Source of the DNA: Candidatus Omnitrophota bacterium
Lineage (GTDB): Bacteria; Omnitrophota; Gorgyraeia; Gorgyraeales; Gorgyraeaceae
Length of the DNA: 64,000 nt
Direction of reading: 5' to 3'
Assembly: GCA_030649895.1 (NCBI GenBank)
Contig: JAUSEX010000030.1
Coordinates: 592 to 64,591 of the forward strand
Under the pieces are notes generated by a model that worked only from the letters and a program-made list of their open reading frames with translations, did not search any database and was not told the DNA's origin. A program made the position numbers and the translations under genes. This document shows, in pieces, positions 44,810-63,259 of this stretch. The stretch's first letter is position 1. Every line of letters begins with the position of its first letter.

Positions 44810-45393
44810 GCCCTGATTTCTTTTAGAATACTGACGCCTAATTTTTTAAACATCTCTTTTAGTTTAGCCATGGGGAGGCCTAGCACATTAAAATAAGAGC
44901 CTTGTATGTCATCAAAGATAAACGAGCCTGCACCTTCTATTGAGAATCCGCCCGCCTTGTCGTATGGCCCAAGCAATTTAAAATATTCCGGGATTTCTCT
45001 GTTCTTAAGCTTTTTTACAGTCACCAGGGATTTTTCATAATCTGAAATCAAGTTTTCTTTTTTAACGTCTACTAAGCAGAGGCCTGTATAGACCGCTATA
45101 GTCTTGCCTGACATTTCTTTCAACATTTTTTTAGCGTGGCTCGCGTTTTCAGGCTTACCGATTACTTTACCGCCTAATAACACCACTGTATCCGCGCCTA
45201 TCACATACCCGGATTTAAACCTTTTAGCGACTGTTTCAGCCTTTATGCGGGCGTTTATCATAGCAACCTGCTCAGGCAACTTACTCACAGTCATATATTC
45301 TACGGCGTTACTCGCAACCACCTTATGCCTGATGCCGCACGAAGCAAGTATCTCCCGTCTTCTTTTTGAGCTGGACGCTAATATAATACTCAT
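44806..45393 (-). CDS. maf: Maf-like nucleoside triphosphate pyrophosphatase
   Basis: ILASSSKRRREIL N-terminus. About 195 aa. Confidence 0.75.
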   Translation of the reverse strand: MSIILASSSKRRREILASCGIRHKVVASNAVEYMTVSKLPEQVAMINARIKAETVAKRFKSGYVIGADTVVLLGGKVIGKPENASHAKKMLKEMSGKTIAVYTGLCLVDVKKENLISDYEKSLVTVKKLKNREIPEYFKLLGPYDKAGGFSIEGAGSFIFDDIQGSYFNVLGLPMAKLKEMFKKLGVSILKEIRA

Positions 45394-46847: not shown

Positions 46848-46970
46848 GACTTATGATTAACAGTTTACAACAATTTTAAATTTAAGTCAAACGTTGTAAA
46901 ATTTTGTTTGATTAAAAAAATATTTTTGATAAAATAAACCTATCGATTTTTTAAAGCTTTGGGAGGCGCG

Positions 46971-48416: not shown

Positions 48417-48418
48417 CC

Positions 48419-49546
48419 ATGAAAAATAAATCCGGCGGCATAGAAAATCTGATACGTAGAATGCTGAAAAAACACTCATCTCCTCTTATGCTGATACAGG
48501 AAGACGTGCTTGAGAGGCAATTCAGGGCTTTCCGTAAAGCCCTGCCTGAAGTCACGCCTTACTACGCTATCAAAGCAAATCCTTATCCCGGAATAATTAA
48601 AAAGTTTATTGAATTAGGCGCTGGCTTCGACGTAGCAAGCGCCAACGAGATGAATGTTGTCCTGGAACTCGGAGCAAGCCATGACAAAATAATTTTCGCC
48701 AATACTATAAAATCCCACGAAGATATGCGATCCGCCTGCAAGAAAAAAGTAAAGCTCATGACCTTTGACAATGAGTCGGAATTATACAAAATAGCGAAGG
48801 CCTGCCCGGGCGCAAAAGTCATCATAAGGATCAAGGTGGCAAATATCGGCAGTATCGTAGAGCTCTCTCTTAAATTCGGGGCTGATCCGGAGCAATCGAT
48901 ATCCCTGCTGAAAAAAGCAAGGTCTTTGGGGCTGAAGCCCATGGGCGTAAGTTTTCATGTCGGATCGCAATGCACTAACTCCGAAAATTATTTACAGGCC
49001 CTTGAGGTGTCTTCCGTGATATTCAACGAAGCGAAACAATCAGGGATATTTTTGAACATACTGGATATAGGCGGCGGATTCCCTATAAAACATTTTGACG
49101 CTGACAACCATCTTACATTTGAGCGCATGGCAAGCCAAATAAGGAAAAAATTGCAGAGACTCTTTGACAAAAACGTGAAGTTCATCGCTGAGCCTGGCAG
49201 ATTTTTTGCAGGCCCTGCCGGAATACTCGTAACACAGGTAATAGGGAGGGCTTTTAGAAATAATAAAAACTATTACTACCTCAACGACGGGCTATATGGA
49301 GATTTTTCCGGCATAGTATTTGATCATTGTAAATATGAATTCAAGACCTTAAAAAGAGGCCAAAGATTCTTAAGCACCCTGGCTGGGCCTACGTGCGATT
49401 CATTTGATACGATTTCCTTAAGCGAAGACCTTTCTGAGCTTGATGTGGGCAATGTAGTCTACGTGAAAAATATAGGCGCTTATTCATGTGCAAGCGCTGT
49501 GCCAAACTTCAACGGCTTTAAGCCTGCAAAGATCGTAATGTGCTAG
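48419..49546 (+). CDS. Group IV PLP decarboxylase, carboxynorspermidine-decarboxylase (NspC)-like
   Basis: PYYAIKANP PLP-Lys motif and GGG loop (GGGFP). About 376 aa from the ATG at 48419. Confidence 0.6.
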   Translation: MKNKSGGIENLIRRMLKKHSSPLMLIQEDVLERQFRAFRKALPEVTPYYAIKANPYPGIIKKFIELGAGFDVASANEMNVVLELGASHDKIIFANTIKSHEDMRSACKKKVKLMTFDNESELYKIAKACPGAKVIIRIKVANIGSIVELSLKFGADPEQSISLLKKARSLGLKPMGVSFHVGSQCTNSENYLQALEVSSVIFNEAKQSGIFLNILDIGGGFPIKHFDADNHLTFERMASQIRKKLQRLFDKNVKFIAEPGRFFAGPAGILVTQVIGRAFRNNKNYYYLNDGLYGDFSGIVFDHCKYEFKTLKRGQRFLSTLAGPTCDSFDTISLSEDLSELDVGNVVYVKNIGAYSCASAVPNFNGFKPAKIVMC

Positions 49547-49561
49547 TATATAGCCTATCCG

Positions 49562-49603
49562 ACTCCGTGAATCGCCGTACAGGGCGACTCACGGAGTCGG
49601 ATA
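49562..49603. terminator. GC-rich nested hairpin between convergent genes (ccgactccgtga…tcacggagtcgg)
   Basis: 12-bp outer and 5-bp inner inverted repeats. It overlaps the 3' end of the minus-strand gene. Confidence 0.5.
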
Positions 49604-51298
49604 TTGGTCAAAAAATAAAATACTCCCTACATCGCGAAGCATCCCATCGCATAATTCCACTGCTTTCTTGTCTCTCTTTTTTATAAAATCTCTTATCGCG
49701 TAGCCGTCAGGATGACTTTTTAACACTCCTGTAAAAAATACTTTATCTTTATGGACTCCTGATGCGCCGCCTATAAAACCAGTATCGTAGCCGGGTAATT
49801 TTATATGCCCGGGGGTTACAAGCAGGCTGTTTTTACCCCAGACATCATTTATAGACTTATCGGATGTAATAATACTCTCTCCATCCACAGGCGCAATGGA
49901 ACATTTCGCGTATCCCTGTTTTACTTTTATAAATTTCGCGCTTAGCCTTTCTATATGCTTTTCGATTTTCCCGTCATAGCGGATTATGGATTTTCCAAGG
50001 CTGCATGCGTCGTAAATAATATCCGCGGGATAGGCGGAAGATTTGATGTATTCACCTTTAATGCATTCATAGCCGTTATCTTTTAAAAGCCCTGCTATTT
50101 TTTCCAAATGCGGCTCGTAAATAATTTTTTTACCGTAAGAAAATAACATCATATCAGGATGGCCCCTTACAGGCTTTGCTAATTTTGGATGCATAGGGGC
50201 TTCTGTTATATAATATCCCATCTTCTTTAATCTTATTTTCGCCTTACTGGGCATCCTTGGATCAATAATGGCAATGGATTTTCTTATGTCTTTAACCCTT
50301 ACCATTGTCCACCTACGGGGTGAGCCAGATGGCTCACCCCGTAGGTGGACAGGTGCTCCATAATATTTTTCTAAATATTTTTTTTCTAATCCCCTGTGCC
50401 CGGATATTAGATTAAACATATTTTTAGGCGCGCGTATTTCTATTATTTTGCGATTAGGTATTTTTTTAGCGCCCAAAATATCTCTTATCCTATTGCGCAT
50501 CTGTCTTGCGCGCGCCATCTCTCCAAAGCTCGCATGATATGGCCCCGCGAGGATTATTTTCTTTGAGTTCAAGCACTCTGAAGGATGGAGACCTATGCGT
50601 ATTACTTTCACAGCCCCTTTTTCAAAAATATCTGAAACGCAGGCAGACCACTCTATCGCATCCTCCAACGATAATGGCTTGTACCTGCCTTTTTTAAATA
50701 AATCTCCAAGCCCTGTGCCTTTTAAAACAATAGCAGGATAAATGCGGGCTGTCTTCGGCTCTAATTCTATAAGCTTTTCAGCTGTTCTTATTGATTTTTC
50801 AAGCGTATCCCCTGGCAACCCAAGCATCACCTGGACTCCCAGGTCAAGGCCTGATTTTTTTATAATGCGGGAGGCATTTCTGATTATTTTAAAATCCATC
50901 GCTCTCCTGGATTTTTTTAAAACTTCCGCATCAAGCGATTGCACCCCCAGCTCTACCAGGCAACCCCCCATTTTTTTAAACAACTTCATTGATTTTTCGG
51001 AAATGGCTTCAGGATGAGTAGACATCCTCAATCCTTGTATTTTTTTGCTTTTTACGTAAGGGTAAACCGCTTCGAGATATCTCTGCTGAAGAGATTCAGG
51101 CATAAGCGTAAACGTGCCGCCAAAAAAGGCAAGCTCTGTTCTTTCGTTACGGGAAATAGTGCCAAGATTTCTTTCTATAGAGGACTTTATTTCTTCTGTG
51201 GAAGGCAATTTATCCGCGCCTGATATTTTATGCTGATCACAGTAAATGCACCTGTATGAACAGCCGGCGTGTGGAATAAATATGGGTATGATTTTCAC
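49589..51298 (-). CDS. Radical SAM (Elp3/YhcC-like) domain fused in frame to a roughly 240-aa C-terminal domain of unknown function
   Basis: IFIPHAGCSYRCIYCDQ radical-SAM N-terminus. The domain junction is encoded by a perfect palindrome (50306-50351), immediately followed by MVRV… preceded by an AGGTGG Shine-Dalgarno. Confidence 0.5.
   Translation of the reverse strand: MKIIPIFIPHAGCSYRCIYCDQHKISGADKLPSTEEIKSSIERNLGTISRNERTELAFFGGTFTLMPESLQQRYLEAVYPYVKSKKIQGLRMSTHPEAISEKSMKLFKKMGGCLVELGVQSLDAEVLKKSRRAMDFKIIRNASRIIKKSGLDLGVQVMLGLPGDTLEKSIRTAEKLIELEPKTARIYPAIVLKGTGLGDLFKKGRYKPLSLEDAIEWSACVSDIFEKGAVKVIRIGLHPSECLNSKKIILAGPYHASFGEMARARQMRNRIRDILGAKKIPNRKIIEIRAPKNMFNLISGHRGLEKKYLEKYYGAPVHLRGEPSGSPRRWTMVRVKDIRKSIAIIDPRMPSKAKIRLKKMGYYITEAPMHPKLAKPVRGHPDMMLFSYGKKIIYEPHLEKIAGLLKDNGYECIKGEYIKSSAYPADIIYDACSLGKSIIRYDGKIEKHIERLSAKFIKVKQGYAKCSIAPVDGESIITSDKSINDVWGKNSLLVTPGHIKLPGYDTGFIGGASGVHKDKVFFTGVLKSHPDGYAIRDFIKKRDKKAVELCDGMLRDVGSILFFDQYPTP
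50306..50351. repeat. Perfect 21-bp-arm GC-rich inverted repeat (tgtccacctacggggtgagcc-agat-ggctcaccccgtaggtggaca) embedded in frame in a CDS
   Basis: Read directly from the sequence. The arms are roughly 65% GC against a much lower-GC background. It encodes …HLRGEPSGSPRRWT… at the domain linker. Confidence 0.7.
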
Positions 51299-53744: not shown

Positions 53745-54806
53745 ATGCTATATTATGATTCTTATATGAAAACTAAAAAGCCGCCAAGAAAAAATAAAAA
53801 AAGCCACAAGTCGTACAGGGATCTGAAATCCACGCTTTCTCTTGAAAGAGAACTCCTTCAGAACCTTTTAGACAATATCCCTGACGCCATATACTTTAAA
53901 GATGCCGACAATAGGATCATCCGGGTAAACAAATTTTACGCTGAAGGCTTTAATCTGTCCCCTGAAGACATCGTAGGCAAGACTGATTTCGACTTCTTCC
54001 CCAAAGACCAGGCGCAGAGGATGTTCGAGGACGACATATATGTGCTTAAGACCGGCAGGCCTATTATAGGTAAAATCGAGCGCACGCTGTTGCCTAACGG
54101 CACGCATAACTGCGTCACCACCACAAAGATCCCGATAAAAAATAAAGAAGGCAAAGTCATCGGCACCCTGGGGGTAACAAGGGATATAACAGCTTATGAC
54201 AACACCGAGCGCACAAACCTTGACATGATAATAAACTCCCTCAAGGTCCTGGATAAAATACTTGAGACCAAAGACCCGTATACATTCGGCCACACAAGGC
54301 GCGTCTCTCTTATTGCCGAAAGAATAGCCAAAGAGCTCGGATGGGAAGAAAGCAGGATCCTGGAATTAAAGATGTCCGCGGAACTGCACGATATAGGTAA
54401 AATTCTGATACCTCTTGAGATACTCAATAAGCCCGGAAAGCTATCAGACCTGGAATATAAAATGGTGCAGGAACATGTACAGCAAAGCTATGACATGCTT
54501 ATACCTTACTCATTCCCTTCGCAGCTGCCCGAGGCGATATACCAGCATCACGAGAGGCTGGACGGGAAAGGCTATCCCAGAGGCCTGGCAGCTGATAAAA
54601 TTTTACCGGAAGCGAAAATACTGGCTATATGCGACGTCCTGGAAGCCATGATATCGCACAGGCCTTACAGACAGGCATTGGGCATGGACGTAACGCTGCA
54701 TGAGTTAAGAGACAACGCGGGCAATAAATACGACAAGGAAGTCGTAGACGTCGTTTTAAGAATAATCGGCGAAAATAACAACAAGCCTTTTTGGTCAAAT
54801 TCATAA
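53745..54806 (+). CDS. PAS-domain HD-GYP phosphodiesterase
   Basis: PAS N-terminus, HD…HDIGK and HHERLDGKGYPRGL HD-GYP signature. Confidence 0.75.
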   Translation: MLYYDSYMKTKKPPRKNKKSHKSYRDLKSTLSLERELLQNLLDNIPDAIYFKDADNRIIRVNKFYAEGFNLSPEDIVGKTDFDFFPKDQAQRMFEDDIYVLKTGRPIIGKIERTLLPNGTHNCVTTTKIPIKNKEGKVIGTLGVTRDITAYDNTERTNLDMIINSLKVLDKILETKDPYTFGHTRRVSLIAERIAKELGWEESRILELKMSAELHDIGKILIPLEILNKPGKLSDLEYKMVQEHVQQSYDMLIPYSFPSQLPEAIYQHHERLDGKGYPRGLAADKILPEAKILAICDVLEAMISHRPYRQALGMDVTLHELRDNAGNKYDKEVVDVVLRIIGENNNKPFWSNS

Positions 54807-56143
54807 CATCCTCTGCATCTCCATATAAAAAGATATTACTTATAATGTCGCCCCCCTTCTGGCCGAAGATGCCGCCTATAGGCATAGGTTGTCTACAGGC
54901 ATTCCTGACGGATAATGACATCGGCTGCGATATATTGGATATAAATAATATATTTTATAATCTTAGTGCCGGCGAACTTAAAAAATCGTGGCTAGTGAGC
55001 TGCAATACATTTCTGGAAGAAAACATTTTCGAGCTGATGCAGAAAAACCATCCTGAAAAATTCAAATCTCTTGTGGATAAAATGCTGGCGTATGAAGTAA
55101 TAGGGTTCTCTTGTTTCAAAAGCAATATTCACAGCACGCTAAAATTTGCAAAACTCCTCAAATCCAGGAATAAAGATATAAAAATAATATTCGGCGGGCC
55201 TGAGATGACAAGAGAATATTTCAAAAAATCCCGTAAGATTAAAGACGCGGCTGACTTTACAGTGGTCGGTGAAGGCGAGAAAGGGCTTCTGAGCTATATT
55301 AAAAACCCTTCTGCGAAAAATAGAATAACGTTATTTTCAGAAATGACTAACTTGGATAAAACAGCCTTCCCCGTCTATAAAGGCCTTGATATGGCTTCGT
55401 ATCCGCGTAAAAACAGCGCCTCCATGCTGTTTTCAAGGGGATGCGTGAGAAAATGCAGGTTTTGCTCTGAAAGGCTTCTTTATAAAAAATTCAGGGTAAG
55501 GCGCGTTAAAAACGTGATCGAAGAAATCCGATATCATAAATCAAAAAATAAAATAGAGTGCTTCGTATTCCACGACTCTCTTGTAAACGGCGATCTCAAA
55601 AAACTCGAAGAGCTCTGCGCCAAGATAATCAAAAACTTCCGGTCTGTCAACTGGGAAGCGCAGATTGCAGTGCGTAACGACATGAACCAGGCGCTATTGG
55701 AAAAAATGAAAAAAAGCGGGTGCTATAACCTGTTCGTAGGCCTGGAATCAGGTTCCAGCAGGACATTAAAAAATATGAATAAAGGTTTTACGCCGGAAGA
55801 TGCTGTGAGGTTTTTTAAAAAATTAAATAAGGCTGGTTTATTTTTCGGGGTAAGCGTTATAATAGGCTACCCAGGGGAAACAGAGGCGGAATTCGGGGAA
55901 AGCCTGGACTTTATTATAAAAAATAAACCTCTTATACCGAAAATCGAACAGGTAAACCCGTTCACTTATTACGATGGCATAAGCGCTGGAAAAATCGCTG
56001 AGAAAAATGCCTTAAAAAGGCTGGATATTTTTATAAAGGAAATAAAAGCGCATGGCTTCAAATACACCAACGCCTTTTTGGGTAATCTTATAGAAAAAAA
56101 CCTTCCCGCTCCAACCTTCCTGCTCGGAAAACAGGACGGTTAG
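54791..56143 (+). CDS. B12-binding-domain radical SAM enzyme (class B)
   Basis: KKILLI… cobalamin-binding Rossmann N-domain and SRGCVRKCRFCSE radical-SAM motif. TTG start at 54791 overlaps the HD-GYP gene end; an ATG alternative lies at 54845. Confidence 0.65.
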   Translation: MVKFITSSASPYKKILLIMSPPFWPKMPPIGIGCLQAFLTDNDIGCDILDINNIFYNLSAGELKKSWLVSCNTFLEENIFELMQKNHPEKFKSLVDKMLAYEVIGFSCFKSNIHSTLKFAKLLKSRNKDIKIIFGGPEMTREYFKKSRKIKDAADFTVVGEGEKGLLSYIKNPSAKNRITLFSEMTNLDKTAFPVYKGLDMASYPRKNSASMLFSRGCVRKCRFCSERLLYKKFRVRRVKNVIEEIRYHKSKNKIECFVFHDSLVNGDLKKLEELCAKIIKNFRSVNWEAQIAVRNDMNQALLEKMKKSGCYNLFVGLESGSSRTLKNMNKGFTPEDAVRFFKKLNKAGLFFGVSVIIGYPGETEAEFGESLDFIIKNKPLIPKIEQVNPFTYYDGISAGKIAEKNALKRLDIFIKEIKAHGFKYTNAFLGNLIEKNLPAPTFLLGKQDG

Positions 56144-56154
56144 AACAGCTAAAT

Positions 56155-56997
56155 ATGATCGAATACAAAGAAGTTAAAATCTCCAGGATACTTAATCCTA
56201 CAGGTATTGACCTCGGCGAATACGTTATAAATCCCTTCATGGGATGCGAATATTCCTGCCTTTACTGCTACGTAAGGTCTAACAAGGTCATAGCTAAGCG
56301 CGAAGGCGAATGGGGTAAATATGTGGATATAAGAATAAACGCTCCGGATTTATTGGAAAAAGAGCTGCTGGCGAAAAAACCGAAATGCGTGCTTTTAGGC
56401 TCCACCACAGACTGTTTCCAGCCGATCGAAACAAAATATATGGTTACAAAAAAGATCCTGGAGATTCTGAATAAACATAAAGTATATTACCATATACTTA
56501 CAAGGTCCCCTGCTGTTGCGGAATACGCGGATTTACTGAAACAGGGCTTTTGTAAAAAAATCTACTTTACGATAAATAACATTACGCCTGAGCTTAAAAA
56601 TAAACTTGAGCCAAAAAGTCCGGGGTTCGAGCCAAGGATCAAAGCCATTAACAAAATGCTGAATGAAGATATATCCGTAATCCCTTATTTCTCGCCCATC
56701 CTGCCCTGGATATCTGACTTCAAAGACATCTTCAGCCGCTTTCCAAAATCAAATTCAGTGGAATTTGAAGGTTTAAACATGAATCTCGTCAATATAAACG
56801 ATATAATATCCGGGGTATCCTCTATCTATCCCGCCCTAAGGCCGGGATACGAGGAACTGCTCAAAGACAGGACCTTTTACGATTCCTTCTGGGCTAGTAT
56901 AAAAAAAGATATAATTAGAGAAGCAATAAAGGCAAAAAAGAATTATAATATATACATTCACAACTTCCGCGGTTACTTCACCAACAAATACAACTAG
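56155..56997 (+). CDS. Radical SAM protein, SplB-like (COG1533 family)
   Basis: INPFMGCEYSCLYCYV CxxxCxYCY motif near the N-terminus. Confidence 0.55.
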   Translation: MIEYKEVKISRILNPTGIDLGEYVINPFMGCEYSCLYCYVRSNKVIAKREGEWGKYVDIRINAPDLLEKELLAKKPKCVLLGSTTDCFQPIETKYMVTKKILEILNKHKVYYHILTRSPAVAEYADLLKQGFCKKIYFTINNITPELKNKLEPKSPGFEPRIKAINKMLNEDISVIPYFSPILPWISDFKDIFSRFPKSNSVEFEGLNMNLVNINDIISGVSSIYPALRPGYEELLKDRTFYDSFWASIKKDIIREAIKAKKNYNIYIHNFRGYFTNKYN

Positions 56998-57051
56998 AAA
57001 ATCAACAATGTTGTTTCTCTGGTTGTTTGAGGAATAATAAAGAGAAAAGCC

Positions 57052-58155
57052 ATGAAAAGCGAAGTATTTTTTATAGAGGTTAAGCCCTCCGATCCGGAAG
57101 CAAGGCGCAACGCGCTTCAGAAATTGCTCGAAAGGGTAAATCCATTCAGCGATTACAAAAAGGACGAGTTTATTCCTCTGAAACTAACCATCGGAGACAG
57201 TCAATGTGTTTATAACGTGCACCCGGAGCTGGTAAAGATAATAGTATCCGAAATAAAAAAATTTAAGGCAAAGCCTTTTTTATTCGACACAAACGTTATA
57301 TATAAAGGAGAGCGGCTGAATGCAATAGACCATTTGGCCCTGGCGCAGAGCAAGGGATTCGGCTACACAAAAGTAGGCGCGCCTTTTATAATAGCTGACG
57401 GGGCCTTTGGCCAGGACGGGAAAGAGCACGCGATAGATTCTGATTATATTAAAAAAATAAAAATCCCTTCTTTTATAGGCTCCCTAGACAGCCTTGTGGT
57501 GTTATCGCACGCTACAGGCCATATTTTATCAGGTTACGCCGGCGCCATAAAAAATATCGCGATGGGCATGGTTTCAAAGCCTTCTAAGCAAGTCCAGCAT
57601 TCATCCTTGAAGCCTCACGTGATTGAAAAAAAATGCACCAGCTGCGGGTGCTGTATAAAGATATGCCCTGCCCAAGCCATATCTAGTGACACTTTACGTT
57701 CGCCGAATAAAGCTCCGTTCGACAAACATAAAGCGTCACATGCAGTTATTGACCAGACAAAGTGCATCGGGTGCGGGGAATGCCTATCGGCGTGCAAATT
57801 CGACGCTGTATTCATAAACTGGTCTGAAGACCACGATGTATTCGCAAAGCGCCTGATAGATACGGCGCATTTCATCCTTTCAAAGTTTAAAAATAAACTT
57901 TTTATAACATTCGGCTTTGACATCACGAAGGAATGCGACTGCATATCAACTAAAAATGAGCTGATATTTTCTGAAAATATAGGTATCCTCGCGTCTCATG
58001 ATCCCCTAGCCATAGATAAGGCAATGGTCGATCTTGTAAATAGCGATAAGGATCTATTCAAAGAAACGGGCCTGCTGGACACGCATAAGACAATATTTGA
58101 ATACGGGCGGAAAAAAGGACTTGGCAATACTGACTATATCCTTGTAAAAATATGA
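57052..58155 (+). CDS. DUF362-domain protein with an inserted 2x[4Fe-4S] ferredoxin domain
   Basis: CTSCGCCIKICP and CIGCGECLSAC motifs within a DUF362-like scaffold. Confidence 0.5.
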   Translation: MKSEVFFIEVKPSDPEARRNALQKLLERVNPFSDYKKDEFIPLKLTIGDSQCVYNVHPELVKIIVSEIKKFKAKPFLFDTNVIYKGERLNAIDHLALAQSKGFGYTKVGAPFIIADGAFGQDGKEHAIDSDYIKKIKIPSFIGSLDSLVVLSHATGHILSGYAGAIKNIAMGMVSKPSKQVQHSSLKPHVIEKKCTSCGCCIKICPAQAISSDTLRSPNKAPFDKHKASHAVIDQTKCIGCGECLSACKFDAVFINWSEDHDVFAKRLIDTAHFILSKFKNKLFITFGFDITKECDCISTKNELIFSENIGILASHDPLAIDKAMVDLVNSDKDLFKETGLLDTHKTIFEYGRKKGLGNTDYILVKI

Positions 58156-58847
58156 CAAAATTCGAAACGTTGTTCGGCATAAAAGAATCCGAGGTGAAAA
58201 ATACATGCGTGCTGATGCCTCTGATACCTAAAGGTTCGTTGGAATGCCTCGGCGTAAAAAAATTTTCCAAAGGCAGGGTGTATTCTTCTGGCAATTCATC
58301 CTCTTTTACTCTGATAAATACGCTCATGGGCGCAGCGTTCACAGGAGACGCGGCGCTCTATCTCAGCCAGACAAATTGTAAAAACCTCATCCTTTTCGGC
58401 TCATGCGGCCTCGTAAAACCATGCGAAAACCTTGATATAGGAAGCCTTGTGGCGCCTATTGAATGCTATTCCATGGAAAGCTTCTCGGACCTGTTATTAC
58501 AAGACCATAAATTTAAGACATTTTATCCGGACGACGGCCTGTTAAGATCATTTTTAAAAACTAACACATCGGTCCTGGAAGTAAACTGCGCGACCCTGGG
58601 CTCTTTAAAGCTGGAAGAAGACTACCTGAGCTTGTTTTCAGAAAAAAATATCCAGGTGGTGGATATGGAATGTTCGGGTTTCTTCTCGGCAGCCACCCAG
58701 AAAAATCTTAAGGCCATGGCGATCTTCTACATCTCTGACATAATAAACGAAAAACCTTTTTACAGCCCTCTCATCGATGAAGACCGGGTAAGGCTATCGT
58801 CTTCTATTAAAGAAGGCATATATTCCATATGCAACTTCATAAAATAG
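58152..58847 (+). CDS. PNP/UDP-1 phosphorylase-superfamily protein, MTA/SAH-nucleosidase (futalosine-hydrolase)-like
   Basis: VDMECSGFFSAA resembles the MTAN catalytic region. ATGA-coupled to the upstream DUF362 gene. Confidence 0.45.
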   Translation: MTKFETLFGIKESEVKNTCVLMPLIPKGSLECLGVKKFSKGRVYSSGNSSSFTLINTLMGAAFTGDAALYLSQTNCKNLILFGSCGLVKPCENLDIGSLVAPIECYSMESFSDLLLQDHKFKTFYPDDGLLRSFLKTNTSVLEVNCATLGSLKLEEDYLSLFSEKNIQVVDMECSGFFSAATQKNLKAMAIFYISDIINEKPFYSPLIDEDRVRLSSSIKEGIYSICNFIK

Positions 58848-60127
58848 CCTCTTATTTTCCATGCTTCGGCGTAAACAAAAGACAGGAAATCGAACGGCTT
58901 GTTTACGAAATATCCAAAAGAGACAAAATAAGCCCGGAAAAAATACTCAGTCCTGTTTATTCCGATAATTTCGAATCTTTAAAAAACAGGCTTATCAAAA
59001 TAAGATTTCCGTACGCCTCCAAATATAACAAGACTATAAGGCCATACCTGCCTAAGATAGCGATAAAACCTGCCGATAAGTTTAATCCCGGAGATTCGGA
59101 GTTCAACCCCGCCAGGATATTTATCGAAAAATCAGCTGCTTCATCCGGCCTTAAAAACAACTTCAGAAAATCTTTCCCTGAAGCGAAATTTACGGAAATA
59201 TCCTCGCTGAAAGACTTTATCCGGGACAATAAAACATCAGGCCCGTCCTCTTACAACAAAAGGCGCGACAATGTTTTTATCACAAATGAAAAATATGACT
59301 TCTTTAAAAAATGCCCATGCACAAAAGGCGCAGTCGGATGCGGATATCATATATTTAACCTGGGTTTCGGCTGCGTATTTGACTGCACATACTGCTACCT
59401 CCAGGAATATAACAATGCGCCCGGGCTTATATTCCCTGCGAATATCAATAAATTTTTCGAAAGATTCAGGCGCTACAAAAAACTAAAGATGCGCATCGGA
59501 ACAGGAGAATTTTCAGACTCGCTGATGCTGGACCATATAACAGAATATTCTGTAGATATAATAGAATTTTTTAATAAGCATGAGGATGTTACTTTTGAAT
59601 TCAAAACAAAAAGCGCGAATATATATAATATTTTAAAATCAAGGCATTCAGGAAATATCGTAGTCTCCTGGTCTTTAAATCCTCAGGGCATAATAGACAA
59701 AAACGAATTTTTTACAGCGTCTTTGAGCGAGAGGCTGGACTCAGCTGAAAAATGCGCCCAGGCAGGCTACAAGGTAGGGTTTCATTTTGATCCTGTGATT
59801 TATTTTAATGGATGGGAGAAAGAATACCAAAGCGTAATAGACTTATTATTCAATAAAATAAACCCCAAAGATATAGCGTGGATAAGCATGGGCACATTCA
59901 GGCTTAAGCCTGAATTAAAACCACTGATAGAAAACCGTTTTCCGGATAACAAGATTCTGGACGAGGAACTTTTGGCGGGGTATGATAATAAATTAAGGTA
60001 TCCTTACGGCCTGAGATACACTATATATAAAAGTCTGCTCAATAGCTTTAAAAAATATTCTAAAAAGCTTCCGATCTATCTCTGCATGGAAGAAATTTCT
60101 ATCTGGCAAGACCTTAAGTCCGCCTGA
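58829..60127 (+). CDS. Spore-photoproduct-lyase-like radical SAM enzyme with a roughly 170-aa N-terminal extension
   Basis: GCVFDCTYCYLQ closely matches the SplB cluster motif (C-x-x-D/H-C-x-Y-C-Y-L-Q). Confidence 0.55.
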   Translation: MQLHKIASYFPCFGVNKRQEIERLVYEISKRDKISPEKILSPVYSDNFESLKNRLIKIRFPYASKYNKTIRPYLPKIAIKPADKFNPGDSEFNPARIFIEKSAASSGLKNNFRKSFPEAKFTEISSLKDFIRDNKTSGPSSYNKRRDNVFITNEKYDFFKKCPCTKGAVGCGYHIFNLGFGCVFDCTYCYLQEYNNAPGLIFPANINKFFERFRRYKKLKMRIGTGEFSDSLMLDHITEYSVDIIEFFNKHEDVTFEFKTKSANIYNILKSRHSGNIVVSWSLNPQGIIDKNEFFTASLSERLDSAEKCAQAGYKVGFHFDPVIYFNGWEKEYQSVIDLLFNKINPKDIAWISMGTFRLKPELKPLIENRFPDNKILDEELLAGYDNKLRYPYGLRYTIYKSLLNSFKKYSKKLPIYLCMEEISIWQDLKSA

Positions 60128-60141
60128 CAGGCGGACTTAAG
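60109..60141. terminator. Perfect 14-bp-stem hairpin (accttaagtccgcc-tgaca-ggcggacttaaggt) overlapping the stop codons of both convergent genes
   Basis: Read directly from the sequence. A candidate bidirectional terminator. Confidence 0.6.
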
Positions 60142-61549
60142 GTAAAACCTTTATAGCTCTTTCAGGCCGCGTGGGGCACTTATTCTGGCAAATCCCGCAT
60201 CCCACGCATAAAGAAATATCCACGTAAGGCTTGCGAATCTTTTTTCCCGCAATCGTTTCTTCATAGGTCTTGATAGCTTTGCTGGCTACGGGACAATGTT
60301 CTTCGCACACGATACATTCTCTATTCTGCGACAATGGGAGGCATATATTTTTATCAATAATCGCCGAGCCAAGTTTTTGCTCCTTTTTTTGAGCCAAGCT
60401 TAAATTAGGTATTGCGCCTGCGGGGCAAACTTGTCCGCAAAGATTACAATTATATTCGCAATATCCTATCTCAGGCACAAGATGAGGCGCCCATATGCCT
60501 GCGAGGCCTGATTCGAATATCGCAGGCTGCAGGCCGTTGGTCGGGCAGATCTTCATGCAATTACCGCACCTTATGCATTTATTTAAAAATTCATGCTCAT
60601 TTTTAACCCCAGGCGGCCTGATAAGCTTTTTTTTAGCAGAGCCTTCCCTTCCCTTAAACCCTAAGAATAAAAACGAGGACGCTATCAAAAATAAAAAATC
60701 TTTGCGCGATATAGAACCTTCGCTTCCGGAGCGCTTTGCGGTATTTTTAATGGGCCAGGAAAATTTTGTGGCCAGATCAGGGCAATCATATATACAATCC
60801 ATACAAAGGATGCACTCTTCTTTTCTATAGCCCGAGTCTTCTTTTATAGCGGACATACGGCAGTTGATGCTGCATCTCATACAATGCATGCATTTATCAA
60901 TATGCCTGCTCAACAAACAAAACCTCGCGGTAAGCGCGTATATCGCTCCAAGCGGGCAAAGGATGCGGCACCAGAATCTTTTTGTTATAAGCGCAAGCCC
61001 GCAGATTATAACAAAAAAACTTAAAGTGATAAATGAATGCGGGAAATAAAATATCTTTGTCCCAAGTATTGATAATTTCAGCATGCGGTAAAAATCATAG
61101 AGCGGCGTGTAAAAATTAAGACCCTTTATAAGAAAAATAAACGCCTTGTCCATGGCCAGGGTAAAAGACGGTATAAAATTTAAAGAAATAAACCTTGCTG
61201 TGATAACAAGCGGGTCAAAAATCCATACAATCTGAATACCTATAAACGCAAAAACAACAATAAGGCCCAGGATAAAATACTTAATATTTCTGAAAAGGCC
61301 CATATCCCTGTTTTTCGCTTTTATTCCGCATGCATCAATAATAGTCCCGAGCGGGCAAACCCATCCGCAAAAAAATCTTCCTATTATAAAGGTCATGGCG
61401 AGCATCGTCAAAGAAAACAGGCTGAATACCGAGACCAGCGGGTCTATTTTAAAAAACGCGGCTGCGTGCGGGGTCAGCCACAAAAGATAAATAAATAACA
61501 TCAGAAAAGATATCTGGCTAAGCCTTCTGAATAAAATTAATTTTTTCAT
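60137..61549 (-). CDS. Membrane-bound polyferredoxin, NapH/MauN-like
   Basis: N-terminal TM helices with CxxC, plus multiple CxxCxxCxxxCP ferredoxin motifs (CIRCGNCMKICP, CVGCGICQNKCP). Confidence 0.6.
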   Translation of the reverse strand: MKKLILFRRLSQISFLMLFIYLLWLTPHAAAFFKIDPLVSVFSLFSLTMLAMTFIIGRFFCGWVCPLGTIIDACGIKAKNRDMGLFRNIKYFILGLIVVFAFIGIQIVWIFDPLVITARFISLNFIPSFTLAMDKAFIFLIKGLNFYTPLYDFYRMLKLSILGTKIFYFPHSFITLSFFVIICGLALITKRFWCRILCPLGAIYALTARFCLLSRHIDKCMHCMRCSINCRMSAIKEDSGYRKEECILCMDCIYDCPDLATKFSWPIKNTAKRSGSEGSISRKDFLFLIASSFLFLGFKGREGSAKKKLIRPPGVKNEHEFLNKCIRCGNCMKICPTNGLQPAIFESGLAGIWAPHLVPEIGYCEYNCNLCGQVCPAGAIPNLSLAQKKEQKLGSAIIDKNICLPLSQNRECIVCEEHCPVASKAIKTYEETIAGKKIRKPYVDISLCVGCGICQNKCPTRPERAIKVLP

Positions 61550-61550
61550 C

Positions 61551-62537
61551 CTAAACCTTAATAGTCAATATGTCCGCCTTGGCAATTTCAGCGTAGTCGC
61601 CTTTTCCCAGGTCATGCTTGACAGCGTAATCCACATAGCTCACGGATAAAGGTTCAACCCCCATTAATACGCACGCGTACGAGTCGCACAATACAGGGTC
61701 CGTGCCCACTATCAGGGTTTTCATATCTACAACATCTTCAAGATTTCCTCCTGTTGGCCCGTTTTTCTTAAGCACCCTATAAGCGTCTATTACTGCAAGG
61801 TCTGGTTTTATGAAATCCGTGAGATGCGCCAGTTTTATCCCCATGTCAAAGTGTATCAACCCTCTATTGCCGCTACAAACCCCCATCAGATTTTTCATGG
61901 ACAGCGTAAGGCCGGCGAGACGGTGATGCTTTAACACGGGTACATTTATAAATGTGTCGCATTCCAGGGCATCCCTGAAAACAGGCCATCCTTCCATAGG
62001 ACTCTGGTAATCAAACCTTGCCTTCACTACGTTCCAGTCATCGGGAGAATAGACATTAGCGCCTTTTTCCTTTGCAATCTTTTCTATGCCGCTATTTTTA
62101 TAACAGCGCTTTGGGTCGTTACAGGGGTTATCGAATACATTTACCCTTTTTGCGCCTGAGTTAAAGCACATATCCACAAGCGCTCCGACAACCTGAGGGT
62201 TTGTATTGGCTGCCTGTTCAGGAGTACGGTCCCACCCTATATTAGGCTTTATAAGCACAACGCTATTTTTCTTTACAAATTTATCCATCCCTCCTATCGC
62301 TTCCATTGCTTTCATTGTCATTAGATAAGGGTCATCGCCTTTTGCCACAACCAGATCATGCAGGCCTTTTATTTTTTTAACTGTCCTTCCCGTAGAAATT
62401 TCCTCTTTGCCAAACGCGAATTTAAATAAGGCGTTATTTAACATAAGGCTTCCCGCGCCTATCCCGCATAGCTTTAAAAATCCTTTTCTTGTAATTTTTT
62501 TCTTAGGAAGTCGTTCAAATATTGATTCTACTTTCAT
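61551..62537 (-). CDS. Tat-signal DUF362 protein
   Basis: TRKGFLKLCGIGAG twin-arginine-like signal (RK variant) followed by a DUF362 domain. Confidence 0.5.
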   Translation of the reverse strand: MKVESIFERLPKKKITRKGFLKLCGIGAGSLMLNNALFKFAFGKEEISTGRTVKKIKGLHDLVVAKGDDPYLMTMKAMEAIGGMDKFVKKNSVVLIKPNIGWDRTPEQAANTNPQVVGALVDMCFNSGAKRVNVFDNPCNDPKRCYKNSGIEKIAKEKGANVYSPDDWNVVKARFDYQSPMEGWPVFRDALECDTFINVPVLKHHRLAGLTLSMKNLMGVCSGNRGLIHFDMGIKLAHLTDFIKPDLAVIDAYRVLKKNGPTGGNLEDVVDMKTLIVGTDPVLCDSYACVLMGVEPLSVSYVDYAVKHDLGKGDYAEIAKADILTIKV

Positions 62538-63259
62538 ACCTTCCTCCTGACTATCCGTGACGCCAGTATGCCTGCTTCATAAAGCGCAAGCATAGGGATA
62601 GCAAATATCAGCATGTTCACGATATCCTGCGTAGGCGTAATAATTGCCGCTATTATAAAGATCGCCACTATGGCGTATTTTCTGTTTTTCCTGAAAAATT
62701 CCGCATTCAATATTCCGATATACGACAAAAGCGCCATAATAACCGGTATCTGGAATATCCCGGCTCCTATCAAAAGCAAGGCCCCTGCAAATGAAAAATA
62801 TTTATCTATGCTTATCATGGGCACTGCCGCGCCGTTCGCGAAACTGATAAGAAACTTAAGCGCAAAAGGCAGCGCCAGAAAGTAAGAAAATATTATGCCC
62901 AGTATTGAAAGCAGGAATGATATTATCAGCCAGCTTGCTATGGCCTCCCTTTGATCCTGCTGCACCGCGGGCATTAAAAATAACCCTATTTGGAATAAAA
63001 TAAAAGGCAGGGAAATCATAAAACCTGCCAGGATAGAAAGCCTCAGATACGTTGTAAAAACTTCCGTAGGGGATGTAAATATAAAATTTTCTATTATGCC
63101 TAAAGCCGGTAATCTCAGGATATCAGATATTTTATTCACAAAAGTAAAAGAAAAAATAGCGGCCAGTACAAAAAAAACTAGGCTCGCGATAATCCGCTTG
63201 CGCAACTCTTCCAGATGCTCTATGATTGACATCTTGTTTGGATATATGTCAGTAGCCAT
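62534..63259 (-). CDS. tatC: Twin-arginine translocase subunit TatC
   Basis: Six TM helices and a conserved N-terminal helix (HLEELRKR). Confidence 0.8.
   Translation of the reverse strand: MATDIYPNKMSIIEHLEELRKRIIASLVFFVLAAIFSFTFVNKISDILRLPALGIIENFIFTSPTEVFTTYLRLSILAGFMISLPFILFQIGLFLMPAVQQDQREAIASWLIISFLLSILGIIFSYFLALPFALKFLISFANGAAVPMISIDKYFSFAGALLLIGAGIFQIPVIMALLSYIGILNAEFFRKNRKYAIVAIFIIAAIITPTQDIVNMLIFAIPMLALYEAGILASRIVRRKV

Follow-up and report, generated by a model that had tools for sequence, protein, structure and literature searches.

The six-gene block described here, from a genome of Candidatus Omnitrophota, is a modular composite built around a conserved core rather than one pathway of six steps. 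Two genes make up this core, one for a purine nucleosidase of the PNP fold and one for a long-form radical SAM enzyme of the spore photoproduct lyase (SPL) fold. In Omnitrophota, a gene for a DUF362 protein with two [4Fe-4S] clusters is translationally coupled ahead of the core pair, and its product is probably the electron carrier for the core. A pair of radical SAM genes, joined in some relatives by one for a TtcA-like PP-loop enzyme, and a PAS-HD-GYP gene are optional, lineage-specific additions. The window, i.e. the whole stretch of 64,000 nucleotides that was analysed, contains exactly six ORFs between positions 53745 and 60127, all on the plus strand (Table 1). The ORF listing bears out the tight, co-directional spacing noticed in an earlier sequence-only reading: the first two genes overlap by 16 nt, gaps of 11 and 54 nt follow, and the last two junctions are overlaps of 4 nt (DUF362 stop and nucleosidase start) and 19 nt. 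Promoter and terminator signals did not rise above shuffled controls, and no Rfam elements were found in the window.

Table 1. Genes and protein features of the six-gene block, in positions of the window.
Feature	Position	Strand	Basis
PAS + HD-GYP (HD_5) signalling protein, lineage-specific neighbour outside the conserved core	53745..54806	+	Pfam, motifs
Radical SAM enzyme of class B, with B12-binding domain, accessory module gene 1	54791..56143	+	Pfam
COG1533-type radical SAM enzyme, 280 aa, CEYSCLYCY, accessory module gene 2	56155..56997	+	Pfam, NCBIfam
DUF362 protein with inserted 2x[4Fe-4S] ferredoxin domain	57052..58155	+	Pfam, motifs
PNP_UDP_1-fold purine nucleosidase, predicted hydrolase type, partner in core	58152..58847	+	Pfam, AlphaFold
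SPL-fold radical SAM, long form, uncharacterised group, core enzyme	58829..60127	+	SPL PF20903
N-terminal helical extension of SPL-like protein, residues 1-95	58829..59113	+	Profile, hhalign, model
Cys-rich loop CPCTKGAVGC of SPL-like protein, residues 162-171	59312..59341	+	Alignment
Radical SAM cluster motif CVFDCTYC, Cys182/Cys186/Cys189 of SPL-like protein	59372..59395	+	Alignment to SPL
Cys419 of SPL-like protein, within invariant YLCME motif	60083..60085	+	Alignment

Conservation was assessed in 80 species-level genomes with the SPL-like gene, and denominators below 80 are the assessable loci. The 80-locus lists are ordered by similarity, so the proportions apply to the nearest relatives. 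In 55 of 71 loci the nucleosidase gene immediately precedes the SPL-like gene, with an overlap called in nearly all, and the pair is also found in eight Elusimicrobiota/Endomicrobia loci. In some Elusimicrobia, PNP_UDP_1 and SPL domains are fused in a single chain, as in P0257 (668 aa) and P0270 (649 aa); the 90%-identity cluster of P0257 has a member of identical length on 13 contigs from several Elusimicrobia accessions. The DUF362-ferredoxin gene is directly upstream of the nucleosidase gene in 33/63 loci, essentially in Omnitrophota only. The COG1533-type gene occurs in 13/53 loci, each time accompanied by DUF362-ferredoxin, and together with the B12-binding radical SAM gene in 12/53; wherever this pair is near the core, it sits directly upstream of DUF362-ferredoxin. 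PAS-HD-GYP is encoded ahead of the core in 15 of the 48 loci that could be assessed; 8 of these lack the two radical SAM genes, and the pair occurs without HD-GYP in 6 loci. The complete set is confined to 7 of the 48 species-level genomes that could be assessed, every one a close relative within Omnitrophota. Several Omnitrophota relatives have the six genes in unchanged order (e.g. L008, L009, and L022), and in L001/L010, L007, and L011 a TtcA-like gene is added. The flanks of the six-gene relatives (Dus, aldolase, TatC) are likewise syntenic and, because they are unrelated to the block, shared ancestry explains the arrangement. Neighbourhood conservation, set beforehand as a test, was only half passed, and the proposal of one compact six-gene pathway was not upheld, given the rarity of the full set and the independent variation of the radical SAM pair and HD-GYP. 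Any c-di-GMP control that the HD-GYP gene might suggest is indistinguishable here from inherited synteny.

The domain calls of all six proteins were confirmed with Pfam and NCBIfam. The first protein scores 144.9 bits against HD_5 and 76.6 bits against PAS_4, and the HDIGK and HHERLDGKGYP motifs are visible in its translation. The second matches B12-binding (42.8 bits) and Radical_SAM (82.7 bits), and its best NCBIfam models (ladderane-type, PhpK, and HpnJ) reach 97–108 bits against cut-offs of 360–600. Its start is uncertain: the automated gene call gives 424 aa from 54869, and homology to orthologues begins at residue 12–15 of the 450-aa ORF, which places the start at ∼54791–54827, abutting or overlapping the HD-GYP stop. 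The third matches Radical_SAM (47 bits), with ‘mobile pair protein B’ (112 bits, cut-off 410) and the PA0069 family (101 bits, cut-off 360) as best NCBIfam models. It had been paired with the core enzyme as one of two ‘SplB-like’ proteins; both are radical SAM enzymes, but only the cluster-motif region is common to them. The DUF362 protein (DUF362, 103.8 bits, plus Fer4 families) has two CxxCxxCxxxC ferredoxin motifs. Every NCBIfam equivalog cut-off was missed and literature searches gave no match, in agreement with the view that no described pathway fits the gene set, and the mqn pathway was rightly set aside, as no Mqn signature is present. In PADLOC, the two upstream radical SAM proteins gave weak, sub-threshold matches to candidate models and the other four gave none.

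The core radical SAM enzyme belongs to Pfam family SPL (PF20903) and carries the motif CVFDCTYCYLQ. It was asked beforehand whether it clusters with bona fide DNA-repair SPL or has the canonical residues of that enzyme, and it stands apart: it scores 126 bits against the NCBIfam SplB model (cut-off 400), and its family profile gives true SPL 113 bits versus 280 bits or more for the 150 listed representatives of the family. The three cluster cysteines align with SPL Cys90/Cys94/Cys97 and are invariant in the family, equivalents of the SAM ligands Ser142, Asp143, Lys174, and Ser195 are kept, and so are Arg273 (Arg358), Lys309 (Lys388), Tyr96 (Tyr188), and Tyr339 (Tyr417, which aligns with the C-terminal Tyr of canonical SplB). 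According to the study from which the residue roles in SPL are taken, Arg273 and Lys309 bind phosphate and Tyr339 contacts pyrimidine O4/N3 (PMC3467042). The Cys-rich loop sits where a loop of SPL holds the 3′ thymine, and Cys162 occupies the aligned position of Ser76 in G. thermodenitrificans SPL, which is that of the clostridial-type catalytic Cys. Cys162 and Cys171 are invariant in 156/156 family sequences, and Cys164 or Cys170 is likewise present in all 156, in a complementary pattern with never neither. Cys419, the fourth of the extra cysteines and two residues after the Tyr339 equivalent, is invariant in long and short forms. From the description of the SPL structure, these extra cysteines may lie close together and form a second metal or Fe-S site.

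The nucleosidase (PNP_UDP_1, 40.1 bits) is about equidistant from AMP nucleosidase, DeoD, HpnG, and MTAN in NCBIfam (21–28 bits, all far under the cut-offs). Its AlphaFold model (pLDDT 95) matched PNP/MTAP/MTAN folds at TM ∼0.75, hexameric PNP/MTAP enzymes being the best, so that the specific likeness to MTAN or futalosine hydrolase once suggested is absent. Met172-Glu173 and the catalytic Asp196 are conserved, whereas the phosphate-binding Arg87 of DeoD corresponds to Leu81 and no Arg is invariant across the family, which points to a hydrolase rather than a phosphorylase. Scavenging of 5′-deoxyadenosine is the most economical reading of its role, as was proposed at the outset, but for the SPL-like enzyme alone and not for three radical SAM enzymes, judging by the adjacency and the fusions. 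In the short-form group, mostly Binatia, a nucleosidase is present in just 4/80 loci; the core reaction seemingly needs none, as expected of a scavenger and not of a pathway step. Against this reading, we know of no described fusion between a radical SAM enzyme and a nucleosidase that scavenges its by-product.

Long and short forms have every active-site invariant in common. The N-terminal extension of the long form, previously put at 170 aa and called novel, measures ∼95 aa, is predicted as four helices (pLDDT ∼90), and has identifiable homologues. Its profile matches nothing but residues 185–280 of the proteins whose genes precede short-form SPL-like genes, and the extension is homologous to the C-terminal domain of these partner proteins (hhalign probability 96.7%, E 3.5e-10). 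In 26/55 short-form loci the protein encoded directly upstream is ParB/Noc-like, with GxxR and ENxxR motifs kept, and this is a lead towards nucleic acid; 21/55 partners are wholly without the ParB N-terminal and HTH parts, so DNA targeting is not universal. A GT2 glycosyltransferase neighbours 20/42 short-form and 7/80 long-form loci and is absent from the window, and its family is the same one in two distinct gene arrangements. Five loci have an aldo-keto reductase in place of the nucleosidase or alongside it. Genes for NDP-sugar enzymes are found close to some loci (an epimerase in L060, DegT-type aminotransferases in L005).

Our tentative proposal, to which we give somewhat less than an even chance, is radical chemistry of the SPL type with a pyrimidine nucleotide or a nucleic acid as substrate. 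SAM would be bound on the CxxxCxxC cluster of the SPL-like enzyme, where motif and ligands are conserved. The 5′-deoxyadenosyl radical would attack a substrate containing a pyrimidine nucleotide, most probably in nucleic acid, held through its phosphate by Arg358 and Lys388 and through pyrimidine O4/N3 by Tyr417. Cys162 could serve as hydrogen donor, aided by the putative second metal or Fe-S site. 5′-Deoxyadenosine would then leave, with SAM probably consumed rather than regenerated because the Bacillus-type SPL Cys141 is an invariant Glu in this family and the SPL Tyr98 relay position is Tyr, Phe, or Ile. This 5′-deoxyadenosine would be hydrolysed to adenine and 5-deoxyribose by the nucleosidase, whether coupled or fused, and DUF362-ferredoxin would deliver or remove electrons. 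The shorter hairpin without Arg304/Tyr305 counts against this proposal, as do Glu227, His319, and Asp321, gains of acidic or polar residues that a DNA-binding pocket does not usually have. Repair plus scavenging alone leaves GT2 and the aldo-keto reductase unexplained; sugar or ribosyl chemistry fits them better.

In an unlikely alternative, the SPL-like enzyme would add the 5′-deoxyadenosyl radical to an unsaturated carbon of its substrate (cf. MqnE/MqnB, HpnH/HpnG). The nucleosidase would then strip off adenine, and the C-linked 5-deoxyribosyl group left behind would undergo aldo-keto reductase reduction, GT2 glycosylation, or B12-radical SAM rearrangement. To our knowledge, described PNP_UDP_1 nucleosidases genomically tied to one radical SAM enzyme, in the futalosine and hopanoid side-chain pathways, all serve adenosyl-adding enzymes, and here the link is tight up to gene fusion. 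GT2, the role of HpnI, recurs beside both forms, the reductase can stand in for or beside the nucleosidase, Cys162 could quench the adduct radical, and there are weak matches to HpnJ (B12-radical SAM, 97 bits) and HpnG (nucleosidase, 21.7 bits). However, all Hpn and Mqn matches are far under cut-offs, the SPL fold has nothing but the common radical SAM barrel to link it with HpnH or MqnE, and nearly all short forms do without an adjacent nucleosidase despite identical active-site invariants. The partner and ParB-like proteins are unaccounted for, and GT2 and the reductase are minority neighbours of long forms.

Clearly less probable is the earlier model of one small-molecule pathway, with a nucleotide-like metabolite undergoing B12-dependent radical C-methylation and two SPL-like C-C lyase steps, c-di-GMP regulation through PAS-HD-GYP, and a nucleosidase serving all three radical SAM enzymes. 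Tight spacing, the order kept among relatives (with or without TtcA-like), and the fixed place of the radical SAM pair speak for it; the rarity of the full set amid syntenic flanks, the independent variation of HD-GYP and the pair, a nucleosidase that tracks the SPL-like gene only, and the distant relationship of the two ‘SPL-like’ proteins speak against it. A slighter chance still attaches to sugar-nucleotide tailoring, in which Tyr417, Arg358, and Lys388 would fix a UDP-, dTDP-, or CDP-sugar by its pyrimidine and diphosphate for radical chemistry on the sugar, and GT2 would transfer the product: the recurrent GT2 family, the NDP-sugar enzymes, the retained binding residues with loss of the DNA-flipping tip, and the new acidic and His residues suit it, but neither a nucleotidyltransferase nor any other gene for sugar activation is conserved in the neighbourhoods, the window has no GT2, the ParB-like partners are unexplained, and we know of no SPL-fold enzyme acting on sugar nucleotides.

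Equally remote is an ordinary spore-photoproduct or related thymine-dimer repair lyase in non-spore-formers, beside a housekeeping purine nucleosidase whose adjacency means nothing mechanistically. The entire SPL fold and family membership, the clostridial-type Cys with the Tyr96, Arg273, Lys309, and Tyr339 equivalents, and the ParB-like DNA-binding partner of many relatives favour it. Against it, the bit scores set the protein apart from SplB, no splA gene is present, the hosts are non-sporulating and many are from the dark subsurface, the protein has a putative extra four-cysteine site, and nucleosidase fusion speaks against chance adjacency. The hairpin of SPL is thought to flip the lesion out of DNA. 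Also against such a lyase, this hairpin is 6 residues shorter in the SPL-like protein and lacks the Arg304/Tyr305 tip, and the lesion-base contacts Arg193 and Glu268 of SPL are without equivalents, whereas the phosphate- and pyrimidine-binding residues of SPL are kept.

The six genes share one strand and are tightly spaced, the extremes at their junctions being a 54-nt gap and a 19-nt overlap (table below). Searches with Pfam and NCBIfam models bore out every domain that the sequence-only reading had named in the six products. No NCBIfam equivalog or subfamily cut-off is reached by any of the six proteins; for the five enzymes every NCBIfam match lies below its cut-off, and with the PAS-HD-GYP protein two generic domain models reach theirs. 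The view that this gene combination is no described pathway holds, since no equivalog is reached and literature searches (DUF362; SPL with Omnitrophota, nucleosidase, or ParB) returned no description of the spore photoproduct lyase (SPL)-like group or its partners. No Rfam element was found in the window, which gives no support to a riboswitch or RNA leader, and promoter and terminator scans of the window gave no signal above shuffled controls.

Positions of the genes discussed, in the window and in loci (L) of relatives
Sequence	Positions	Strand	Feature
Window	45390-46847	-	Saccharopine-dehydrogenase-like protein (485 aa), homospermidine-synthase-like
Window	46959-48416	+	Paralogue of the preceding gene (485 aa), homospermidine-synthase-like
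Window	48386-49546	+	Ornithine/arginine decarboxylase
Window	49589-51298	-	ELP3-like radical SAM (Radical_SAM + Radical_SAM_C) fused to 228-residue DUF6873
Window	53745-54806	+	PAS + HD-GYP
Window	54791-56143	+	B12-binding + radical SAM (B12-rSAM)
Window	56155-56997	+	COG1533-type radical SAM, motif CEYSCLYCY
Window	57052-58155	+	DUF362 with two ferredoxin motifs
Window	58152-58847	+	Nucleosidase (PNP_UDP_1)
Window	58829-60127	+	SPL-family radical SAM (SPL-like enzyme), motif CVFDCTYCYLQ
Window	60137-63259	-	Membrane polyferredoxin (Fer4_5, NapH-like), second DUF362 protein, TatC
L001	5351-6076		TtcA-like PP-loop gene
L019	11336-12169		GT2 downstream of long-form gene
L080	8378-9298		Aldo-keto reductase
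L092	1391-2356		Unannotated domain adjoining or fused with SPL-like gene
L164	748-1662		GT2 upstream of short-form gene
L167	6420-6983		Unannotated domain adjoining or fused with SPL-like gene

Conservation was surveyed by scanning one genome per species, which gave 303 stretches encoding a relative of the SPL-like enzyme; the best 80 of the 303 were analysed. These loci carry the long form, with an N-terminal extension, and come mainly from Omnitrophota; the rest are from Elusimicrobiota/Endomicrobia, Auribacterota and a small number of MAGs with odd labels, MAG taxonomy being sometimes unreliable. Neighbours were found by tblastn and iterative HMM searches of locus ORFs, with simple ORF calling, and denominators are loci with enough upstream sequence. 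Both this set and the 80 short-form loci treated below are the most similar matches, and proportions describe nearest relatives. In 55 of 71 assessable loci the SPL-like gene is directly preceded by the nucleosidase gene. DUF362-ferredoxin is present in 33 of 63, PAS-HD-GYP in 15 of 48, and the B12-rSAM with the COG1533-type radical SAM in 12 of 53; HD-GYP occurs without the radical SAM pair in eight loci, and the pair without HD-GYP in six. From these counts and the independent occurrence of HD-GYP and the pair it follows that the block is modular. Its core is the nucleosidase and SPL-like genes, to which DUF362-ferredoxin is added in Omnitrophota, and the other genes are optional. The neighbourhood is therefore conserved as far as the core pair is concerned, but not as a whole: all six genes occur in only 7 of 48 assessable loci, and the relatives concerned are close ones, with synteny that extends into unrelated flanks (Dus, aldolase, Fer4_5, TatC). 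A B12-rSAM near the core in one Elusimicrobiota locus (L060) was rejected as support for a conserved link, because it is a paralogue fused to TPR in another genomic setting.

The SPL-like enzyme was compared with SPL using residue roles from PMC3467042, HMMER alignments, and an alignment with full-length SplB of Bacillus velezensis and Clostridium botulinum. The cluster cysteines (CxxxCxxC) are kept as Cys182, Cys186 and Cys189, and the SAM ligands Ser142, Asp143, Lys174 and Ser195 of SPL are kept in the family as Ser229, Asp230, Lys261 and Ser282. Tyr96 (here Tyr188), Arg273 (Arg358), Lys309 (Lys388) and Tyr339 (Tyr417) are likewise kept. In SPL, the phosphate inside the lesion is proposed to be bound by Arg273, counted also among the SAM-binding residues, and Lys309, and Tyr339 binds O4 and N3 of dihydrothymine (PMC3467042). 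Only Tyr339 remains of the dihydrothymine-base contacts: the Arg193 position is Ser or Ala, and the Glu268 region is deleted or Gly355. At the Tyr98 position Tyr, Phe or Ile is found. The Bacillus-type Cys141 position is occupied by an invariant Glu227, and an invariant Cys162 falls exactly at the clostridial-type catalytic cysteine position (74/76). In the MAFFT alignment with full-length SplB the hairpin is 6 residues shorter, WGRYGI including the tip Arg304/Tyr305 being gone, although this result is alignment-dependent. Equating Arg390-Tyr391 with the hairpin tip was ruled out, as the full-length alignment pairs Lys388 with Lys309 and places a 6-residue deletion. The window protein scores 125.9 bits with TIGR04070, the SplB equivalog model (cut-off 400), and 60.5 bits with TIGR03886, the SPL-family protein model (cut-off 437.55). 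The separation from bona fide SPL on which the sequence-only reading depended is thus upheld, by the equivalog score and by the loss of Arg193 and Glu268. By Pfam the protein is assigned to the SPL family, and by the equivalog model and lesion-binding residues it is predicted not to be SplB.

Cys162, Cys171 and Cys419 are invariant in 156 long- and short-form sequences, each of which also has Cys164 or Cys170, never neither. The cysteine-bearing loop and the C-terminus correspond to segments that both contact the bound lesion in SPL. These invariant cysteines and the lesion-contacting role of their SPL segments make a second, four-cysteine site likely, which would hold a second metal or Fe-S centre in the old substrate pocket. 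Cys162 may alternatively be a metal ligand rather than a hydrogen donor. PDB searches with N-terminal and C-terminal pieces of the protein returned noise only.

The window protein is part of a much larger family, whose profile matches 2685 representatives at E at most 0.001 and 775 at E 1e-30 or better. Many of them are short forms of 350-390 aa without the extension, scoring 280-380 bits, against 113 bits for true SPL with the same profile. Short forms fall below both NCBIfam SPL cut-offs (TIGR04070 scores 85-148 bits), and one subgroup is mainly from Candidatus Binatia MAGs. Group members are labelled 'spore photoproduct lyase', 'radical SAM protein' or 'hypothetical protein' at source. Among 80 metagenomic short-form loci (L087-L167), 55 could be assessed for the gene directly upstream, and in 47 of these it encodes a partner protein. 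The partner is ParB/Noc-like in 26 of the 47, with a ParB_N domain and the GxxR and ENxxR motifs kept (68.7 bits over 200 residues with the Noc model, cut-off 315); in the other 21 it is the C-terminal domain alone, about 180 aa and without a Pfam match. A profile built from residues 1-95 of the window protein matches solely partner proteins, at their residues 185-280, and hhalign aligns the window extension with the partner domain at a probability of 96.7% (E 3.5e-10). Because of these matches, the N-terminal extension, described earlier as novel and 170 aa long, is best seen as the partner's C-terminal domain fused to the enzyme: an extension exists, but it comprises about 95 aa and has homologues. 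This unannotated domain of about 170 aa has three forms, alone, at the C-terminus of ParB/Noc-like proteins and at the N-terminus of long-form enzymes, and it always adjoins or is fused with an SPL-like radical SAM gene.

The short-form loci sit amid housekeeping genes such as murI and secA, and no close relatives of the SPL-like protein were found on phage or plasmid records. On both counts, anti-phage defence and a mobile element were rejected; PADLOC gave nothing meaningful either, since its candidate models were matched weakly and at superfamily level by the two upstream radical SAM proteins and not at all by the other four. Two unannotated human-gut phage contigs (MT835770.1, MT835514.1) encode SPL-family proteins that share 25-30% identity with that of the window.

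Nucleosidase and SPL-like enzyme are strongly linked. The 19-nt overlap is between their genes, overlaps are called in nearly all loci, and eight Elusimicrobiota loci retain the pair, with nucleosidases that share only 29-36% identity with the one in the window. When 1.84 billion representative proteins were searched with the SPL-like family profile, two single-chain fusions from Elusimicrobia were recovered, P0257 (668 aa) and P0270 (649 aa), with the Pfam order PNP_UDP_1 then SPL and chains composed of nucleosidase, adaptor domain and SPL-like enzyme. The fusion is not an assembly artefact, because a 668-aa member of the 90%-identity cluster of P0257 occurs on 13 contigs and in several Elusimicrobia accessions. 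To our knowledge, no other radical SAM enzyme is fused to a nucleosidase.

The nucleosidase matches Pfam PNP_UDP_1 at 40.1 bits, and its AlphaFold model (pLDDT 95) resembles hexameric PNP/MTAP, DeoD and MTAN about equally (TM about 0.75, 15% identity). The ribose-binding Met172-Glu173 and Asp196 are invariant in the family and align with the Met-Glu pair and Asp204 of DeoD. In the HMMER alignment, which covers the part behind the N-terminal residues, the phosphate-binding Arg87 of DeoD is replaced by Leu81, and among 44 family members no arginine is invariant or near-invariant. Measured against the DeoD phosphate arginines (Arg24, Arg87 and Arg43 of the neighbouring subunit), the enzyme thus falls short at Arg87 and in family-wide arginines. 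Since Arg87 is Leu81 and no arginine is conserved, the enzyme appears more likely to be a phosphate-independent purine nucleosidase than a phosphorylase. A specific likeness to MTAN or futalosine hydrolase, suggested earlier, found no support: the MTAN model NF005522 gives 20.9 bits (cut-off 161), no futalosine hydrolase model is among the NCBIfam matches listed, and in sequence DeoD-type PNP and AMP nucleosidase are nearer. Model scores place it as a PNP_UDP_1 member outside every named subfamily.

Among the upstream genes, the HD-GYP protein (HD_5, 144.9 bits, Pfam) has the HDIGK and HHERLDGKGYP motifs, the sequence features of HD-GYP c-di-GMP phosphodiesterases, an activity that is predicted only. 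The B12-rSAM (B12-binding 42.8 bits, cut-off 32.1; Radical_SAM 82.7 bits; Pfam) is classed by its domains as a class B (cobalamin-type) radical SAM enzyme and belongs to none of the named subfamilies: NCBIfam models for HpnJ, PhpK, ladderane-type enzymes, RiPP C-methyltransferases and BchE give at best 78-108 bits, with cut-offs of 281-600. The public automated call starts this gene at 54869 (424 aa) and loses 26 N-terminal residues; orthologues conserve about half of these, among them the KKILLI strand in the B12-binding domain. As orthologue homology starts at residue 12-15 of the 450-aa ORF, the gene abuts or overlaps the HD-GYP gene. In three relatives (L001, L007, L011) a TtcA-like PP-loop gene (tRNA 2-thiocytidine synthetase model, 190 bits, cut-off 272) lies between HD-GYP and B12-rSAM, an insertion which is a hint of RNA as a possible target of the accessory radical SAM pair. 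DUF362 belongs to the same Pfam clan as the LarA N-terminal domain, according to one paper.

Several further features of the window were recorded. The polyferredoxin/DUF362/TatC trio is convergent with the cluster, recurs in 11-14 related Omnitrophota loci and may be an exported redox module. Its DUF362 protein has an N-terminal region ahead of the DUF362 domain, with a possible predicted export signal, and no detectable BLASTP similarity to the DUF362-ferredoxin of the cluster. The ELP3-like fusion gene is conserved in 13 related loci. The divergent saccharopine-dehydrogenase-like paralogues and the adjoining decarboxylase resemble a polyamine cluster in which one enzyme is duplicated.

Taken together, these features suggest a joint reading, which we favour tentatively and at somewhat less than even chances. 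The SPL-like enzyme would carry out SPL-type hydrogen abstraction on a pyrimidine-nucleotide-containing substrate, most probably nucleic acid, with a cysteine-mediated completion assisted by the auxiliary cysteine-bound site. SAM would be consumed, because the SAM-recycling relay of SPL is absent; the coupled nucleosidase would hydrolyse the 5'-deoxyadenosine by-product, and DUF362-ferredoxin would serve as electron carrier. A scavenger role fits the near absence of the nucleosidase beside short forms, which share every active-site invariant; a nucleosidase homologue is divergently adjacent in four short-form loci. The truncated hairpin and the acidic residues gained in the pocket point against the joint reading, as do the many partners without a ParB part and two unexplained neighbours. 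The first of these is one GT2 glycosyltransferase family, found upstream in 20 of 42 short-form loci and, in a different gene order, in 7 of 80 long-form loci, where it closely follows the long-form gene (L019, L064, L070, L052, L048, L038, L054). The second is an aldo-keto reductase (YdjG-like, 213 bits, cut-off 550), which adjoins the long form in five loci (L080, L065, L066, L076, L086), directly upstream of the SPL-like gene and usually replacing the nucleosidase.

Both neighbours keep alive an adenosyl-transfer route like that of MqnE/MqnB or HpnH/HpnG, which we nevertheless regard as unlikely. A single six-gene pathway under c-di-GMP control, as first proposed, is improbable, given the few loci with the complete set and the syntenic unrelated flanks of these relatives. 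The GT2 and aldo-keto reductase genes would also suit an enzyme tailoring sugar nucleotides, for which we see very little likelihood. Equally slight are the chances of a plain SP repair enzyme: the group is very probably not a classical repair enzyme, since lesion contacts are lost, a putative four-cysteine site is added and the partners are its own.

A more elaborate version, to which we assign the lowest probability as a whole, takes the SPL-fold group, the partner and GT2 as an oxygen-independent DNA (or RNA) base-modification system. The ParB-like clamp or fused adaptor domain could position the two-cluster enzyme on a pyrimidine; hydrogen could be abstracted, e.g. from the thymine methyl, to yield the allyl radical that occurs in SPL as well. 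At the auxiliary cysteine-bound cluster the radical could then be oxidised or functionalised, GT2 could glycosylate the product, and the nucleosidase could clear the stoichiometric 5'-deoxyadenosine. If true, base-J-type hypermodification would have an anaerobic counterpart.

The SPL-like group is an uncharacterised, widespread SPL-fold branch with a distinctive putative metal site, conserved partners and a probably new function. As far as we know, the spore photoproduct lyase fold has until now been associated with a single reaction, and its large sister group comprises thousands of sequence clusters from Omnitrophota, Elusimicrobiota, Binatia and others. Identifying the substrate would add a reaction to those known for radical SAM enzymes, possibly one that strict anaerobes carry out on nucleic acids, and correct a widespread annotation. 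The fused nucleosidase offers a natural test case for built-in 5'-deoxyadenosine removal versus a further adenosyl-transfer pathway.

Several known systems resemble parts of this arrangement. MtnN/Pfs, the MTA/SAH/5'-deoxyadenosine nucleosidase, relieves product inhibition of radical SAM enzymes and has in common with the window nucleosidase the fold, the Met-Glu ribose pair and the catalytic Asp. With no phosphate site, hydrolysis is expected, and 5'-deoxyadenosine removal appears the best fit for its role; what sets it apart from MtnN/Pfs, besides its low MTAN score, is its dedication to one radical SAM enzyme, to which it is in some cases fused. In queuosine salvage, the nucleoside hydrolase QueK and the radical SAM queuine lyase QueL follow the same pairing logic. 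An analogue of this pathway was rejected: QueL (Q186P0, filed under IPR006638) and QueK (IPR023186) belong to neither SPL nor PNP_UDP_1, and no preQ1 riboswitch (Rfam, window) or queuosine transporter was found. The futalosine pathway pairs MqnE with MqnB or MTAN, and the hopanoid side-chain pathway pairs HpnH with HpnG, followed by HpnI (GT2) and HpnJ (B12-type radical SAM). Both tie a PNP_UDP_1-fold nucleosidase genomically to one radical SAM enzyme, and the wider neighbourhoods of SPL-like loci share GT2 and a B12-domain radical SAM with the hopanoid genes. Orthology is lacking, however (HpnG 21.7 bits versus 187, HpnJ 97 versus 578, no HpnH match), and MqnA, MqnC, MqnD and MqnE have no match, so that the mqn pathway was rightly set aside; with all matches sub-threshold, both pathways were rejected. 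The radical SAM partner here also has the SPL fold, and adenosyl transfer is a proposal. ParB/Noc proteins, which bind DNA in a CTP-dependent manner, share ParB_N, GxxR and ENxxR with half of the short-form partners, but these fall below the Noc cut-off and have a different, unannotated C-terminal domain; in the window the ParB N-terminal domain is not encoded. The closest comparison is with SplB (Bacillus/Geobacillus, Clostridium; PDB 4FHC/4FHD; TIGR04070), which shares CxxxCxYC, the SAM ligands, the clostridial-position Cys and the Arg273/Lys309/Tyr339 equivalents at 23% identity and 126 of 400 bits. The two differ in the Cys141 to Glu replacement, the non-conserved Tyr98, the lost Arg193 and Glu268 and the shortened hairpin. 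Whereas SplB is found with SplA in spore formers, the SPL-like group occurs in hosts without spore formation, together with a nucleosidase, a ParB-related protein and GT2, and has four extra conserved cysteines and an N-terminal domain of about 95 aa that are absent from SplB.
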